Positions 41,730 through 47,011 of a DNA stretch of 64,000 bases are shown in pieces (the first letter of the stretch is position 1; each line of letters opens with the position of its first letter). The stretch lies in NCBI GenBank assembly GCA_030602225.1, contig JAUWAD010000002.1, positions 12,418 through 76,417 on the forward strand, in the 5' to 3' direction. The notes under the pieces are model-generated. The model worked only from the letters and a program-made list of their open reading frames with translations, was not told the DNA's origin and did no database searches. This DNA is from Bacillota bacterium (GTDB lineage Bacteria > Bacillota > Clostridia > Tissierellales > Tissierellaceae). A program made the translations under genes and the position numbers.

Positions 41730-42311
41730 TTACAGGTCACCCTTTAATCCAATTTCCTCAGCTACTTCTCTCATGGCTAATATGGTTTCATGAATTATAT
41801 CCTTTAATTCCATATTCATTAACCCAGCTCCATCCTCAATCACTTCTCTGTTAACTCCAGCAGCAAATGATTTTTGCCCCCACTTCTTCTTAACACTTTT
41901 AGCTTCCATATCCATGATTGATTTGCTTGGTCTCATCAGGGCAGTTGCTGCTATCAAACCAGTTAGTTCGTCTACCGTATAAATTACCTTCTCCATAATT
42001 TCCTTTGGTTCGACATCAGTGCACAACTTCCAACCGTGACTTAATACACCTCTGATATAGTCCTCTGGCCAATTTTCATCTCTAAGTAACTGTTCAGTGA
42101 TCTTACAATGTTCATCAGGATATTGGTCATAATCCAAATCGTGAATAAGGCCTATTACCCCCCACTTTTCAACATCTTCATTATATAATTTTGCAAAATG
42201 AATCATTGTTGCTTCAACTGCCAGAGCATGCTTTATCTGACTATCATTTTTTACATGCTTGTTCAATAAATCCCAAGCATCATCTCTAGTTGGTCTATAA
42301 TCTCCCACCAA
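41730..42311 (-). CDS. HD/HDIG domain protein
   Basis: KHALAVEA, GLIHDLDY, HGW, DELTGLI. Confidence 0.88.
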   Translation of the reverse strand: MVGDYRPTRDDAWDLLNKHVKNDSQIKHALAVEATMIHFAKLYNEDVEKWGVIGLIHDLDYDQYPDEHCKITEQLLRDENWPEDYIRGVLSHGWKLCTDVEPKEIMEKVIYTVDELTGLIAATALMRPSKSIMDMEAKSVKKKWGQKSFAAGVNREVIEDGAGLMNMELKDIIHETILAMREVAEEIGLKGDL

Positions 42312-42390
42312 AATCCCTTCTTTCTGCTTTTATATTTATTTTAACCAATATGATGTAAAATTACAAGCAACGGACTTTACACCAATAAAG

Positions 42391-43821
42391 TCAAGAAATT
42401 GATTTCTTGAATTGGAGTGTAAACGTACTCCCCTTGCCAATCTCACTTTCAACGAAACATCTTCCACCTAAGGCTGTTACTATTGATTTTACTATGGATA
42501 AACCTATTCCAGTTCCTGCTTTCCCCCTAACATGGCTCTTGCCTCCGCGATAATATCTATCCCATATTAGATTTATCTCATCATCTGGGATTCCTTCTCC
42601 CCTATCTTTAACTGAAATACTAACCCATTCATCCTTTTCTTCTACTTTTATCTCGATTTCCTTGTAATCATTGGAATAGTTAATCCCATTGATTATAAGA
42701 TTGTATATAGCTTGGATAACCTTTGATTCATCTCCTAATATAGTCGTATTCCCAGAATGAATTAGTTTAATATCAAAATTCTCCTGTTCAACAAAGTACT
42801 CAAATCTACCCAAGACTTTTTTTGCACACTGATAAAGGTCAATTGTATTTAGCTCCAATGTGATTAATCCAGATTGAACTTTGGATAAATCAAGCATATC
42901 ATCCACAAAATGTGTTAATCTATCGGTTTCATCAATTATAATTCCCACATGGTAGTCCCTTTTTACCTTATCATCACCTGATATATCCCTAATCATCTCT
43001 CCATATGATTTTATTAAGGTTAGGGGTGTCTTTAAATCATGTGTCATGTTTGCCATAAGATCTTGTCTTAATTCCTCAGTCTTGTTCAACTCCTTTGCCG
43101 TCTTATTCAAGGTCTCTGCAAGATTGTCAATCTCAGTGTAATAACCTTTGTCAAACTGGATGTTATAATTACCCATCATAAGGTTTTTTGCCTGATCAGT
43201 TATCTTTACTATTGGATTACTTAGCTTCCTGGAAATTATATAGCTAAGTCCTATAGCCAAAAACAAGGATAAAATAGTAATTATAACAAGCTGATTCTGG
43301 AGTACGTTCACGGTTGAATCAATTGGATCTAGGATAGTATTAATATATAAGAAATAATTTGACCCTTGCTCATTTTCAAGAATTGCACCATAAGTCAATA
43401 TTGGATATTCAATTCTGTGATCACTTCTTGTATATAAAGTAGTCCTATCATCGGATTTGTATAGGTTTGTCAAGAGTTCGGAAAACATGTTGGACTCCAG
43501 TCTGGGTTGTCTTATAATATCAAAGAAATCCAATGGGAAAATTAGCCTTCCTGTCTCATCGAGAATATTAATAGAAATTCCCTCCAAAAAGGCCTTTTCC
43601 ACCAATTGATTTTCAAATTCCTCACTATTGTATTGCCCCAGTAGTTGATCCCCAATCTTTTTAATTTCTCTCATCTTCATATTTTCGTAAAAACTATTTA
43701 TAAATACAATTTGCAAAAGCCAGAGAATCACAATAATAACGGAAGCAAAGGCAATAAAATAGGACCAAAGTTTAAAATTCAAAGTTCTTTTATCTAATTT
43801 TGATGTTCCCATACCATTCAC
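42391..43821 (-). CDS. HAMP-domain sensor histidine kinase (OmpR partner)
   Basis: 2 TM; HDLKTPLT; NLIINGINYS; DRGEGI; GTGIGL; GKGSTF. Confidence 0.92.
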   Translation of the reverse strand: MNGMGTSKLDKRTLNFKLWSYFIAFASVIIVILWLLQIVFINSFYENMKMREIKKIGDQLLGQYNSEEFENQLVEKAFLEGISINILDETGRLIFPLDFFDIIRQPRLESNMFSELLTNLYKSDDRTTLYTRSDHRIEYPILTYGAILENEQGSNYFLYINTILDPIDSTVNVLQNQLVIITILSLFLAIGLSYIISRKLSNPIVKITDQAKNLMMGNYNIQFDKGYYTEIDNLAETLNKTAKELNKTEELRQDLMANMTHDLKTPLTLIKSYGEMIRDISGDDKVKRDYHVGIIIDETDRLTHFVDDMLDLSKVQSGLITLELNTIDLYQCAKKVLGRFEYFVEQENFDIKLIHSGNTTILGDESKVIQAIYNLIINGINYSNDYKEIEIKVEEKDEWVSISVKDRGEGIPDDEINLIWDRYYRGGKSHVRGKAGTGIGLSIVKSIVTALGGRCFVESEIGKGSTFTLQFKKSIS

Positions 43822-44492
43822 TAACCTTTATATTCAAATTTATAACCTACTCCCCTAAGGGTGACTATATAATCCCTGTAGGGTTCAATATTATTTCTAA
43901 GCATCTTTATATGGGTATCTATGGTTCTATCATCTCCATAAAAATCATATCCCCACACCTCTTTAAGGAGTTTTTCCCTTGACATGGCTTTATTCTTATT
44001 CATTGCCAGATAAACCAACAACTCATACTCCTTTGGGGTGATGTCTATTTTCTTATCATCCACGTATACATCCATACCATCCAGATCGATTTTAAGTCCA
44101 TCAAATTCCAATTTTTTGTTATTCTCCATAGATTTACTTCTGTTGATTATAGCATTGATTCTTGCCATAACTTCCTTAGGTGAGAATGGCTTTACAACAT
44201 AATCATCCACACCTATTTCAAATCCAAATAATTTATCATACTCCTCACCTCTTGCAGATAGCATTAATATGGGAGTTTTGAATTTCTTTCTGATCTCCTT
44301 AACTGCTGAAAACCCATCAAGTTTGGGCATCATAATATCCATTATTATAAGGTCATACTCATTTGTATTAGATTTCTGTATGGCTTCCATACCATCTTTT
44401 GCCTCATCTACCATGTAGCCTTCAAACTTGGCATATTCCTTTATTACTTCCCTAATTCTTTCCTCATCATCAGCAATTAGTAATCTAATCAT
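43821..44492 (-). CDS. OmpR-family response regulator
   Basis: IADDE, MDIMMPKLDG, DDYVVKPFS, ITPKEYELL, RTIDTHIKMLR; ATG 44492 after GAGGTGAG. Confidence 0.93.
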   Translation of the reverse strand: MIRLLIADDEERIREVIKEYAKFEGYMVDEAKDGMEAIQKSNTNEYDLIIMDIMMPKLDGFSAVKEIRKKFKTPILMLSARGEEYDKLFGFEIGVDDYVVKPFSPKEVMARINAIINRSKSMENNKKLEFDGLKIDLDGMDVYVDDKKIDITPKEYELLVYLAMNKNKAMSREKLLKEVWGYDFYGDDRTIDTHIKMLRNNIEPYRDYIVTLRGVGYKFEYKG

Positions 44493-44526
44493 GCTTCTCA
44501 CCTCATTTCTAGAATACCAAATTAAA

Positions 44527-44551: not shown

Positions 44552-45277
44552 TTATTTTAACTTTAAAATTTCTTCGTTTACTTTTTTAAGAACCTCTCCA
44601 GCTTTACCAATTATTACCATATCGAATTTCTTCTTTACTTCATTCTCATTATTGATATAAACCACTTTCCCAGATGTTCTTTTGTGAATACCAGCAGCTG
44701 GATATACGGTTAAACTGGTTCCTATAATTAAAACTAGTTCCGCTTTTTTAACTTCCTCAATTGATTTCTCCAACTCATAGACTGGCAAAGCTTCCCCAAA
44801 TAAAACAATTCCCGGTCTAAGCTTTCCCCCACAACTATTACATGGTACTCTATTAATGAAGTCATCTCTAGTAGCTTCCCTACCACAGGAAAAACACCTG
44901 AACTCTCTTATGGACCCATGAATATTTAGTACATTTTTACTCCCTGCCTTCTTATGAAAATCATCTACATTCTGTGTGATAATAGACTTAACTAAACCAT
45001 CATCTTCCCAATTTGAAAGTATATAATGCCCTTCATGGGGTGTAGCTGTTGTATTTGATTTTCCTCTTAATGTATAAAACCTATGGAAGTTATCATAGTC
45101 ATTTATTAAAGCATCAATTGTGGCTACCTTCATGGGATCAAACTCTTTCCATATTCCTGTAGGCGATCTGAAATCAGATAATCCACTTTCAGTGGACATT
45201 CCAGCACCTGTTAATACTACTGTGTATTTTGAATCTAGTATTTCCTTAGCTAATTCTCTGAATTGATAATTAATCAT
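44552..45277 (-). CDS. cobB: Sirtuin NAD-dependent protein deacylase
   Basis: GAGMSTESGLSDFRS, TQNVDDFH, HGS, two CxxC, RPGIVLFGE, GTSLTVYPAA; ATG 45277 after AGGAGTG. Confidence 0.92.
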   Translation of the reverse strand: MINYQFRELAKEILDSKYTVVLTGAGMSTESGLSDFRSPTGIWKEFDPMKVATIDALINDYDNFHRFYTLRGKSNTTATPHEGHYILSNWEDDGLVKSIITQNVDDFHKKAGSKNVLNIHGSIREFRCFSCGREATRDDFINRVPCNSCGGKLRPGIVLFGEALPVYELEKSIEEVKKAELVLIIGTSLTVYPAAGIHKRTSGKVVYINNENEVKKKFDMVIIGKAGEVLKKVNEEILKLK

Positions 45278-45348
45278 TTTATCCACTCCTTGAATATATA
45301 TTAGCAAATAGGAAAAAAATAGACAACAACCCAAAAGGGCTATTGTCA

Positions 45349-46233
45349 TTAAAGTCTTTCTTCTATTTCATTAATCTTTTCTTTCAAATTATCAATAGAA
45401 GGTAAATACATGTCCGCTCCAACTATATTTAAAGCTTCCCTTTCATTTTCTATTCCCCTACCCCCAATTAATATCAAAGGTGTCCTGGAAGATAATTCAA
45501 GCTTTAATGCTTGTACCAGATAACTACAGCTATTTGTTCCCCCTGGTGTGAGTATTGATAGTACTATTAAATCTGGTTTTCTCTCTCTTATAACTCCTAT
45601 CAAACTATCTAGTGGAATACTTCTACCTATATAGATTATCCCCCATCCTTTTCTCCTGAAGAACTCTGCTGCCATCTTTAAACTCAAAGTATGTTCCTCT
45701 CCACCTGGTACCATGAATAGTGCCTTATATACCTTCTCCTCCTTGACCGGTTCAACCTCTGATAGGTAATCAAGAAGTTTTTCTATTAATGCTGAAGAAT
45801 AATGTTCTTGTGCTATTGAAATCTGATTTCTCTCCCATAGATCTCCTATCTTCCTTAGAGCTGGAATAAATATTTGTGTTATTATTCTTAGAAGATCAAT
45901 TCCTTGGGTATGAGCATTCTTAATTAGTTGCTTAGCATTGTTTGAATCACCTATTATCAGGTAGTTAACAAAATCATCAACTAACTCATCATTTTCTAGA
46001 ATAAAGTCATATTTTTCCTTAGATTCATTAAGATCAATTCCCAATAGAAAATCTAAACTTATCTTAAGATACTCAGAGATTTCTTTTAATATTTCATTTC
46101 CTGGAAATCTTATATTATTCTCATAATTAGCAATTGTAGATTGAGCAACTCCTAACTTTTGGGAAAGTTCCTTTTGTGTAATTCCTTTTTTTATTCTAGA
46201 TTTTTTTAACCTTTCACCAAAGCTGCTCATCAT
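45349..46233 (-). CDS. XRE-HTH plus B12-binding (CarH-like) transcriptional regulator
   Basis: N-terminal HTH_3 (GERLKKSRIKKGITQKELSQKLGVAQSTIANYE); W-x9-EH (WERNQISIAQEH); EEH...RRKGW..IYIG..IP. Confidence 0.88.
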   Translation of the reverse strand: MMSSFGERLKKSRIKKGITQKELSQKLGVAQSTIANYENNIRFPGNEILKEISEYLKISLDFLLGIDLNESKEKYDFILENDELVDDFVNYLIIGDSNNAKQLIKNAHTQGIDLLRIITQIFIPALRKIGDLWERNQISIAQEHYSSALIEKLLDYLSEVEPVKEEKVYKALFMVPGGEEHTLSLKMAAEFFRRKGWGIIYIGRSIPLDSLIGVIRERKPDLIVLSILTPGGTNSCSYLVQALKLELSSRTPLILIGGRGIENEREALNIVGADMYLPSIDNLKEKINEIEERL

Positions 46234-46243
46234 TTCACCAACC

Positions 46244-46849
46244 TTATCCGAATATTTTCTTTCTTAAAGATACAAATGCTACTAAAGCTATTATACCTAA
46301 CCCAAATATTGGAGTCAACTCACTTGAGCCTGTTCTTGGTAGTACAACTTCTGCTTCTTCAGCACTCAGTACAAAATCAGCTGGTACTAATACTGAATCT
46401 ATTACGTGGATTACTCCATTTGTTGCTTCAATATCAGCTATTACTACATTAGATTCGTTGATTTTAACTCCACCAGTAAGGTCAACTTTTATAGTATCAC
46501 CTTTAAGTGTTGGTGCTTCCATGCCATTTACCAAATCAGTGCTCATTACTTTACCTGATACTACGTGGTATAGTAATACTTCACTTAGTTGTGGGTGTGC
46601 CAATAAATCTGCTGCTGTAATTTCAAGTTGTGATAGTAGTGCTGCAAATGCTTCATTTGTTGGTGCAAACACTGTAAATGGTCCTTCACCTTGTAATGCT
46701 CCCACTAATTGTGCTTGTGTTAATGCTGCCACTAGAATACTGAAGTCTTCATTTCCTACTGCTATATCTACTATATCTTGATCTTGTGCAAATACTGGGA
46801 TGTTAATTAATAATACTAATGCTAATAAAATACTAAATACCTTTTTCAT
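46244..46849 (-). CDS. Fasciclin (FAS1) protein with signal peptide and LPRTG sortase anchor
   Basis: GPFTVFAPTNEAF (H1), LLYHVV, NGVIHVIDSVL (H2); LPRTG plus TM plus RKK. Confidence 0.92.
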   Translation of the reverse strand: MKKVFSILLALVLLINIPVFAQDQDIVDIAVGNEDFSILVAALTQAQLVGALQGEGPFTVFAPTNEAFAALLSQLEITAADLLAHPQLSEVLLYHVVSGKVMSTDLVNGMEAPTLKGDTIKVDLTGGVKINESNVVIADIEATNGVIHVIDSVLVPADFVLSAEEAEVVLPRTGSSELTPIFGLGIIALVAFVSLRKKIFG

Positions 46850-46904
46850 GATAATCCTCCTCTAAATTTTTATATTTTAATTTCATATTGTGTTCTGTGA
46901 GATA

Positions 46905-46933
46905 ACAATATCACGTTATGCAATTTATGTCAA
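46905..46933 (-). promoter_or_regulatory. Sigma-A promoter of the fasciclin/XRE-B12 unit
   Basis: TTGACA-17 nt-TATTGT. Confidence 0.6.
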
Positions 46934-46978
46934 TACTTATTTTAAAAATATATTTCATTTTGTGAATTTTATTGGCAT

Positions 46979-47011
46979 AAAAAAACTCCCTAACCTAAGT
47001 TAAGGAGTTTT
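46979..47011 (-). terminator. gntP-family gene terminator
   Basis: AAAACTCC-TTAAC-loop-GTTAG-GGAGTTTTTT on the minus strand. Confidence 0.65.

Follow-up and report, generated by a model that had tools for sequence, protein, structure and literature searches.

Layout of the fasciclin-regulator unit

The window, as we call the whole 64,000-nucleotide stretch analysed here (contig JAUWAD010000002.1 of a Tissierellaceae genome), carries on its minus strand a fasciclin gene (46849-46244) followed by a regulator gene (46233-45349). The fasciclin has 201 amino acids (aa) and one FAS1 domain. The regulator, of 294 aa, joins an XRE-type helix-turn-helix (HTH) head to a cobalamin (B12) domain resembling that of the photoreceptor repressor CarH. 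The gap between the two genes is 10 nucleotides (nt). Judged by sequence comparison, the two genes form a genuine and conserved module, a variation on the CarH-type switch with a well-supported operator and promoter anatomy.

The predicted unit is bicistronic and has a terminator on each side. Its upstream neighbour is a GntP permease gene (48445-47021, minus strand), followed by a terminator-like hairpin and T-run (approximately 46977..47009, minus strand), which read AACTCCTTAAC-TTAG-GTTAGGGAGTT and then TTTTTT. Equivalents are conserved in four related loci of the promoter alignment described below (L001, L010, L017 and L023), and this hairpin is the predicted 5′ border. The predicted 3′ border is a terminator-like hairpin of 11 pairs (45347-45322) that lies, with its T-run, directly past the regulator stop codon (45312..45347, minus strand). 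An earlier sequence-only reading of the window had given the order promoter, fasciclin with LPRTG, 10-nt gap, XRE-B12 gene and cobB; open reading frames (ORFs) and Pfam agreed with this order and with the coordinates and domains.

The same reading had proposed a survey of HTH_3 plus B12-binding loci for fasciclin neighbours. We collected 25 loci with full-length regulator relatives (L numbers) from one-genome-per-species contigs, spanning Gudongella, Tissierellaceae, Fusibacter, Acidaminobacteraceae, Vallitaleaceae and other Clostridia. A fasciclin gene was found directly upstream of the regulator, at a distance of 10-25 nt, in 17 of the 25 loci, at regulator identities of 39-71%. The pair was kept despite unrelated flanks in L010, L012, L013 and L017. 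Wherever the fasciclin was absent, the regulator was an orphan. L011 had no fasciclin, though its Fusibacter relative L013 has one, and L019 had a leftover coding fragment for an LPKTG tail upstream of the regulator. Both cases point to secondary loss of the missing fasciclins.

Domains, signature and fold of the regulator

Pfam recognized three parts in the regulator: HTH_3 at residues 9-63 (46209-46045; 3e-15; HTH_3/HTH_19 together cover residues 5-63), a four-helix bundle with G130xxW133-x9-E143H144 (45978-45763; B12-binding_2, 7e-18), and a Rossmann B12 domain with G178xxH181 and G203xxxP207 (45726-45412; B12-binding, 6e-12), all on the minus strand. No MerR domain (the RxWERRY-type winged helix) was found in the regulator by Pfam, and only the cobalamin half of the closest MerR-B12 protein, P0062, matched it. 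The head was instead similar to SinR (1.2e-5) and to the 434 repressor (2.8e-5).

The cobalamin domain of CarH consists of a four-helix bundle, whose Wx9EH motif contacts the adenosyl group and is crucial for binding specifically adenosylcobalamin (AdoCbl) and for photoreception, and a Rossmann module with the motif D/ExHx2G/P-x41-SxT/V-x22-27-GG (PMC9304148). A signature of GxxW, EH, GxxH and GxxxP separates light-responsive domains from other cobalamin binders and was validated experimentally (PMC11796333). In the window regulator this signature was complete, as G130DLW133, E143H144, G178EEH181 and G203RSIP207. The Wx9EH motif read W133-ERNQISIAQ-E143-H144, the lower-ligand region E179-E-H181-T-L-S184, and the classic motif continued with S226-I-L and G257-G258, the Ser standing exactly 41 residues after position 184. 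A further CarH-like motif read FFRRKGWGIIYIGRSIP. Direct reading thus bore out the motifs noticed earlier (W-x9-EH, EEH with HTLS, and RRKG..IYIG..IP).

The signature was also well conserved. G130, W133, E143, H144, E179, H181, G203, P207, S226, G257 and G258 did not vary among the 26 aligned relatives (37-71% identity), and in the same alignment the recognition helix QSTIANYENNxRFP was nearly invariant. The full signature occurred in 38 of 58 clade members, or 55 when the first Gly of GxxH was not required. This conservation bears on the idea of a signal-blind repressor, in which the B12-like domain would be just an oligomerisation scaffold and another factor would be in control. There is a precedent in Myxococcus CarA, a CarH paralogue that lost its B12 dependence (PMC9304148). 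CarA, however, lost the Trp of Wx9EH, whereas here this Trp and all other signature residues are invariant, and no antirepressor-like gene was conserved next to the fasciclin-regulator pair. We therefore consider a signal-blind regulator highly improbable.

Among solved structures, the regulator matched the photocobilins best (8j2w, 3e-17), followed by TtCarH (5e-13) and AerR (7te2, 1.8e-8). An AF2 model (pLDDT 88.5) placed helices at residues 77-160 and a beta/alpha module at 170-293. Its best Foldseek match was TtCarH (5c8d; TM 0.80-0.83 for the cobalamin-binding domain), and all of the top 50 PDB matches were CarH, LitR, photocobilin or CtMerR B12 domains, with a TM of 0.79-0.83 and an rmsd of about 3 Å for that domain. 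Pfam, motifs and fold together support the earlier description of a CarH-like cobalamin sensor with an XRE-type instead of a MerR-type head. The regulator probably works like CarH, yet by these comparisons it is no member of the CarH/LitR family.

The putative regulated promoter P1 and its candidate operators

The predicted regulated promoter, P1 (46905..46933, minus strand), has the −35 hexamer TTGACA (46933-46928), a 17-nt spacer and the TG-extended −10 hexamer TATTGT (46910-46905). Its hexamers scored 10/12, and the layout, including the TG, was the same in 14 orthologous promoters. When the 15 available fasciclin promoters were aligned on their −35 hexamers, a 15-bp palindrome emerged, ATYWC-N5-GWRAT, with half-sites ATCAC or ATTTC.

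The proximal copy of the window, the candidate operator O_P (ATTGCATAACGTGAT; 46910..46924, minus strand), lies in the spacer between −35 and −10. Its letters are ATTGC-ATAAC-GTGAT. The right half-site contributes the TG that extends the −10 and reaches into that hexamer, so that a protein bound there must exclude RNA polymerase. In 13 of the 15 promoters a palindrome with at least 9 of 10 matching positions had its first base exactly 9 nt past the initial T of TTGACA. In a shuffle control 0.0125 such promoters were expected on average, and none of 2000 shuffles reached 13. The pseudo-palindrome ATTGC-N5-GTGAT (46924-46910) that the first look at the window had taken for a candidate operator is thus supported by its conserved position.

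The tandem repeat ATTG(A)CATAA, proposed as a second candidate, does exist in the window. It amounts to no more than the −35 hexamer with the left half-site beside it, and for lack of conservation (L001, the nearest relative, reads GTTGACAACGATTTCAAAA) it was rejected as an operator.

A distal copy, O_D (TTCACAAAATGAAAT; 46952..46966, minus strand; 9/10 match), starts 42 bp upstream of O_P, and 14 promoters had such a copy. The distance was 42 bp in the window, L001 and L013, 51-52 bp in L009, L010, L012, L015, L017 and L023, and 61-63 bp in L002-L005 and L014. On B-DNA these spacings are whole numbers of helical turns, namely 4, 5 and 6; for a period of 10.5 bp, Rayleigh R was 0.89-0.93, and for six lineages against random spacings the phasing had a p of about 0.004. 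Sites locked in phase at variable whole-turn distances fit cooperative binding by a dimer of dimers. A third copy, O_3 (AACACAATATGAAAT; 46880..46894, minus strand), lies at about +5 to +19 of the predicted transcript and has equivalents 18-30 bp downstream of O_P in L001, L002, L010, L015, L017 and L023.

An HTH_3 head together with conserved palindromes is the pattern of an XRE-type repressor, and the palindromes, together with the conserved pairing of the two genes, support control of the sortase-anchored fasciclin by its neighbouring regulator as the most likely arrangement, as had been supposed earlier. The motif also reaches beyond the fasciclin promoters. The same palindrome, in the form xxCAC-N5-GTGAT and again fused to an extended −10, precedes the distant XRE-B12 genes in L047, L049, L050, L053 and L054 (for example ATCACAAAATGTGATAAGAT in L053), and several distant loci had an upstream copy 50-63 bp away. 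The regulator genes of L018 and L020 had a single palindrome just upstream of their own −35.

A motif scan of the window's own genome (2.08 Mb) gave 79 perfect and 1583 nine-of-ten matches. Seven three-site clusters were present; the fasciclin promoter is one of them, and the one on contig C96 lies inside a photolyase coding sequence. A genome-wide regulon call from the motif was rejected, the motif being too degenerate.

The internal promoter P2

A second predicted promoter, P2 (46290..46318, minus strand; TTGACT-17-TATAAT, 11/12), lies within the codons of the fasciclin sorting-signal tail, 85 nt before the regulator start codon. A hexamer pair of this type, scoring at least 10/12, was found in 14 of 15 loci. 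Its reading frame was identical in all 14 codon-aligned loci, and its distance to the fasciclin stop codon was 69-75 nt. The Leu codon that makes the −35 hexamer was TTG in 14 of 14, against a TTG share of 21% among the Leu codons of these genes, and the peptide between the hexamers varied (PIFGLG, LFGGIG, ILIALS, NLGILT). Sorting-signal codons constrained to hold a promoter are a clear case of one DNA stretch with two functions.

No operator copy accompanied P2, which is probably a constitutive source of the regulator; transcripts running on from P1 would bring in negative autoregulation. The internal promoter, the distal and downstream operator copies, their helical phasing and the cross-family conservation of the module go beyond what the sequence-only reading had noticed.

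The fasciclin

The product of the first gene has a signal peptide at its N terminus (MKKVFSILLALVLLINIPVFA...), a fasciclin domain (Pfam Fasciclin, 1.7e-35) and a sorting signal, with LPRTG at 46342-46328 followed by 27 aa that include a hydrophobic tail and end in RKKIFG. The orthologues carry an [LMI]PxTG motif. One sortase gene was found in the own genome, on contig C137, so that FAS1 domain, signal peptide, LPXTG with tail and basic end, and a genomic sortase are all present for a sortase-anchored fasciclin. It is the sole fasciclin gene of this genome.

The closest relative, in L001 (6944-7990), has two FAS1 domains and 348 aa instead of one domain. Within the clade, single-domain fasciclins (L003, L005, L009) alternate with double-domain ones, which suggests that the tandem domain was gained or lost repeatedly.

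Among solved structures, the best bacterial match was Fdp of R. sphaeroides (1w7d, 1e-31), and the algal AstaP also matched (8c18, 2.8e-17). Both belong to a set of fasciclins linked to photooxidative stress. RSP_1409 of R. sphaeroides (Beta-Ig-H3/fasciclin) is induced by singlet oxygen through RpoE (PMC7074977). In A. brasilense, flocculation is mediated by a fasciclin under the RpoE-ChrR photooxidative system, as Dubey et al. 2021 are cited in PMC10949492. In algae, photooxidative stress induces AstaP, also a FAS1 protein (PMC7477208, PMC10147662). Like the window's fasciclin, these are secreted proteins with one or two FAS1 domains. They are switched on by light-linked stress. Their control lies with algal stress pathways or with RpoE-ChrR, a sigma/anti-sigma pair, whereas the window's gene stands beside a B12 sensor, and, unlike them, its product is predicted to be anchored covalently to the wall by sortase. 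A carotenoid-binding role of the AstaP kind is a similarity lead only; carotenoid binding has been treated as a green-algal specialisation, and a cyanobacterial homologue bound none (PMC10147662).

The wider XRE-B12 family

When 1.84 billion representatives were searched with a profile, 509 proteins reached E<=1e-30. The best 150 of these included 131 full-length proteins of 270-345 aa, of which 122 had Wx9EH. The family was patchy: of 399 genomes sampled evenly across the class, only 4 had a full-length member. The profile also brought up very long proteins (P0066, P0075, P0079, P0112 and P0188; 703-2332 aa) with 8-17 tandem copies of the same XRE-type HTH, as its N-terminal part matches each copy.

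Several gene neighbourhoods differed from that of the window. The orphan XRE-B12 genes at L020:9023-10525 and L022:8940-10505 had no fasciclin, and a flagellin gene directly followed. In a sister subfamily of about 31-40% identity (L048:4789-5923 and L049:5681-6819), the XRE-B12 gene adjoined genes for the S component of an ECF transporter and for a stand-alone DICT-domain protein. Within about 4 kb, L048 continued with genes for a PAS-EAL protein and a DNA photolyase; L049 is from Thermohalobacter berrensis. In the Vallitaleaceae (L024:8912-12053, L025, L053:7851-10976 and L054:1177-4302), the XRE-B12 gene overlapped the start of a two-gene MutS_V operon. The two MutS domain V ATPases are paralogous, of about 520 aa, and a perfect ATCACAAAATGTGAT palindrome lay on the −10 of the promoter.

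Related cobalamin domains occurred in other settings. The MerR-B12 protein P0062 stood beside carotenoid genes, and neither of two other cobalamin-domain proteins looked up, P0227 and P0219, had a fasciclin neighbour. In L039, L041 and L043, CarH-type domains stood beside histidine kinases or were possibly fused with them. At L060:4103-7245, a gene for a 351-aa cobalamin-domain protein preceded a HisKA kinase gene, and a divergent MerR gene adjoined. In the own genome, a 220-aa stand-alone B12-binding_2/B12-binding protein headed an operon of FtsX-type permease and ABC ATPase (C96:14355-16834), about 5 kb from the photolyase gene. It had no DNA-binding domain, and WKEH instead of Wx9EH. The distant XRE-B12 gene of L047 likewise adjoined an FtsX/ABC pair.

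No account of an XRE-type member was found in the literature searched, nor of the operator, target or occurrence in anaerobes of such a protein. Database mining had already anticipated the general architecture: in one survey, 'HTH' is named as one of the output types joined to predicted light-responsive cobalamin domains (PMC11796333).

Which signal does the regulator sense?

Light as the signal is favoured by the complete signature, by a class II-like DNA photolyase in the own genome (C96:10210-11565), by the DICT neighbours of the sister subfamily, the DICT domain being predicted to act in light response (PMC8612252), and by the light-stress record of fasciclins. These points are not proof; they lead us to regard light as somewhat more probable than not.

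Several findings weigh against a light-released, AdoCbl-requiring repressor acting at P1. In the regulator, Ser replaces the Gly/Pro after ExHxx (a position that is variable in the family), the third position of SxT/V is Leu, and the spacer to GG has 28 residues instead of the 22-27 of the classic motif. The protein scored 72 bits on the NCBI CarH model NF052513, against a cut-off of 400, with only residues 82-285 aligning. The three operator sites of the window each matched 9/10, none being perfect, and the 79 perfect copies in the genome make the motif too common to define a regulon. No operator was found ahead of the photolyase gene of the own genome. Trp133 is followed by Glu and not by His; only 1 of 122 representatives of the family had His at this position. 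In TtCarH the His after Trp forms the bis-His light state, so that such a state would be unavailable at that position here. Photocobilins, which are proven photoreceptors, likewise have no His after Trp (WQ in the alignment). Finally, the hosts are strict anaerobes, many of them living in the dark, for example in digesters and oil fields, where the effective variable could be the AdoCbl supply.

The residue after Trp133 could also be read in favour of a redox or oxygen sensor, in which the oxidation or ligand state of cobalamin (cob(II)alamin, hydroxocobalamin), and not photolysis, would set DNA binding: there is no His to trap a CarH-type light state. AerR, which uses non-adenosyl cobalamin, was among the sequence matches, and an O2 cue would be useful to oxygen-sensitive hosts. 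The matches to CarH and photocobilins were much stronger than that to AerR, however, and the Trp-Glu-His cap that would contact the adenosyl group is invariant, which would be unnecessary in a binder of hydroxocobalamin. We regard redox sensing as very unlikely.

The dark habitats bear more on a B12-status sensor, in which P1 would be repressed only by the AdoCbl-loaded regulator, the fasciclin would be made when B12 is short, and light would play no part. The fasciclin might then serve to bind the cell to neighbours that produce B12, or to catch a ligand. CarH-type repressors need AdoCbl for DNA binding, so the cofactor supply is an inherent second input. The hosts also depend on B12: the own genome encodes AdoCbl enzymes (OraE, which is D-ornithine 4,5-aminomutase, the lysine 5,6-aminomutase beta subunit and a methylmalonyl-CoA mutase B12 domain) and a BtuF/BtuC/BtuD-like importer behind a cobalamin riboswitch (C76:79100-82631). 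The same genes show that a light-released, AdoCbl-requiring repressor would find its cofactor in this host. FAS1 domains, moreover, belong to an assemblage for which binding of small, soluble ligands has been proposed (PMC1949818).

Two to three cobalamin riboswitches were found in the genome, including on uptake genes. With B12 homeostasis already in their charge, there seems less need for a protein that senses B12 supply separately. The full light-responsive signature (PMC11796333) is kept, the photolyase is retained, and the sister subfamilies adjoin a DICT gene, at one locus near a photolyase, and in no case B12 genes. A link between fasciclins and corrinoids was not found in the literature searched; for this reason, and with uptake already under riboswitch control, a corrinoid-capture fasciclin under B12 feedback was kept as a minority rival only. 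On balance we consider it unlikely that the regulator reports B12 status.

Two further riboswitch loci were observed. At C72:4315-6098 a cobalamin riboswitch preceded genes for a weak PduO-like protein and for two membrane or secreted proteins without family matches. At C71:2195-5204 a weak, below-cut-off one preceded genes for an anaerobic ribonucleotide reductase activase and the reductase.

Not all related hosts are from dark places. T. berrensis is from a solar saltern, and Caldisalinibacter kiritimatiensis is from a hypersaline mat. Anaerobes with such sensors thus do live under light, where light also heralds oxygen.

Neighbouring genes

Downstream of the regulator, on the same strand, lies a gene for an NAD-dependent protein deacylase of the Sir2/CobB type (44552..45277; SIR2 2.9e-47; NCBIfam NF001753, 253 bits against a cut-off of 243). 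The sequence-only reading had included this sirtuin in the operon. In that case it would be co-regulated with sensor and fasciclin, and protein deacylation would be tied to the switch. The gene is indeed immediately downstream on the same strand, and the listed sirtuin ORF (265 aa), unterminated, overlaps the regulator stop codon. This ORF is over-extended, however. The true start is an ATG at 45277 (MINYQF...), 72 nt further on, with its own ribosome binding site ahead. The 11-pair hairpin and T-run separate the two genes, and the sirtuin was 3′ of the regulator in only 2 of the 25 related loci (L001 and L004). On these grounds the sirtuin was rejected as part of the operon; by sequence, the wider operon is already contradicted, and we give it next to no credence.

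Further downstream on the minus strand are the genes of an OmpR-type response regulator and its histidine kinase. Together with the gene of an HD-domain protein, they span 41730-44501 and showed synteny with the module across the Gudongella group only. This linkage is ordinary synteny, and no functional tie to the switch was seen.

A proposed mechanism and its relation to known switches

We favour, as somewhat probable, a reading in which an AdoCbl-requiring repressor is released by light and turns on a surface fasciclin. We infer AdoCbl binding, light as the signal, oligomerisation, repression and the role of the fasciclin from the sequence comparisons. The regulator would be made from the constitutive P2 and by read-through from P1. 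It would hold AdoCbl in a CarH-type pocket, where His181 would be the lower ligand and the adenosyl group would be capped by Trp133, Glu143 and His144. Once loaded, the regulator would assemble in darkness into a larger oligomer that, like that of CarH, would be a dimer of dimers; in a CarH-like protein, such AdoCbl-driven tetramerisation would supply the oligomer needed for cooperative phased binding. The XRE-type heads would occupy the palindromes in the P1 spacer, four helical turns upstream and just downstream. By binding cooperatively and in phase, and probably by looping the DNA, the heads would block RNA polymerase and keep the fasciclin off. On exposure to green or blue light the Co-C bond would break and the oligomer dissociate, freeing P1, and the cell would display its sortase-anchored fasciclin. 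The fasciclin would probably promote adhesion or aggregation, as a protection when light and the accompanying oxygen reach mats and sediments.

The closest known parallel is CarH/class I LitR of Thermus thermophilus, Myxococcus xanthus and Bacillus megaterium (PDB 5C8A/5C8D/5C8E), which are AdoCbl-dependent photoreceptor repressors. Shared with these are the four-helix bundle plus Rossmann cobalamin domain, the Wx9EH cap, the His lower ligand, the GxxW/GxxH/GxxxP elements, and the one-component layout with an N-terminal DNA-binding domain and a multi-site operator overlapping the core promoter (here predicted). The DNA-binding domain is a Cro/CI-type HTH_3, whereas that of CarH is a MerR winged helix. 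The predicted operators are spaced, helically phased palindromes, whereas CarH uses three tandem 11-bp direct repeats over the −35 region. The window regulator also has no His after Trp, its putative target is an LPXTG fasciclin and not carotenoid genes, and its hosts are strict anaerobes.

The photocobilins/CtMerR (PDB 8J2W, 8J2Y, 8JBS; PMC10979010 and the SignatureFinder set of PMC11796333) have the same four signature elements and are the best match of the cobalamin domain; unlike them, the regulator has no biliverdin or globin domain. With the CI repressors of lambda and 434 it shares the HTH_3 head and, as predicted here, palindromic operators, several sites at integral helical turns and control of its own transcription. 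Oligomerisation and signal input are proposed to reside in the cobalamin domain, in contrast to the C-terminal/peptidase domain of CI.

More generally, and tentatively, proteins with an N-terminal XRE head and a cobalamin domain may be a distinct, widespread class of AdoCbl photoreceptor repressors (several hundred clusters, strict anaerobes included) that work by phased looping on palindromes with an extended −10. A secreted or wall-anchored fasciclin may be a general light-response effector that came under RpoE-ChrR in alphaproteobacteria and, independently, under B12 sensors in Firmicutes. Light may serve anaerobes of mats and sediments as an early warning of oxygen, answered by a change of the surface and not by pigment synthesis.

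If this is true, B12 light sensing reaches strictly anaerobic Firmicutes and uses a second DNA-binding scaffold. A palindromic operator, whole-turn spacing and a separate constitutive promoter for the sensor would make the module an attractive green-light genetic switch. Bacterial fasciclins are poorly understood, and they are now found in light-linked regulons of three unrelated regulator types. This recurrence points to a conserved protective role, be it aggregation, surface shielding or ligand capture.

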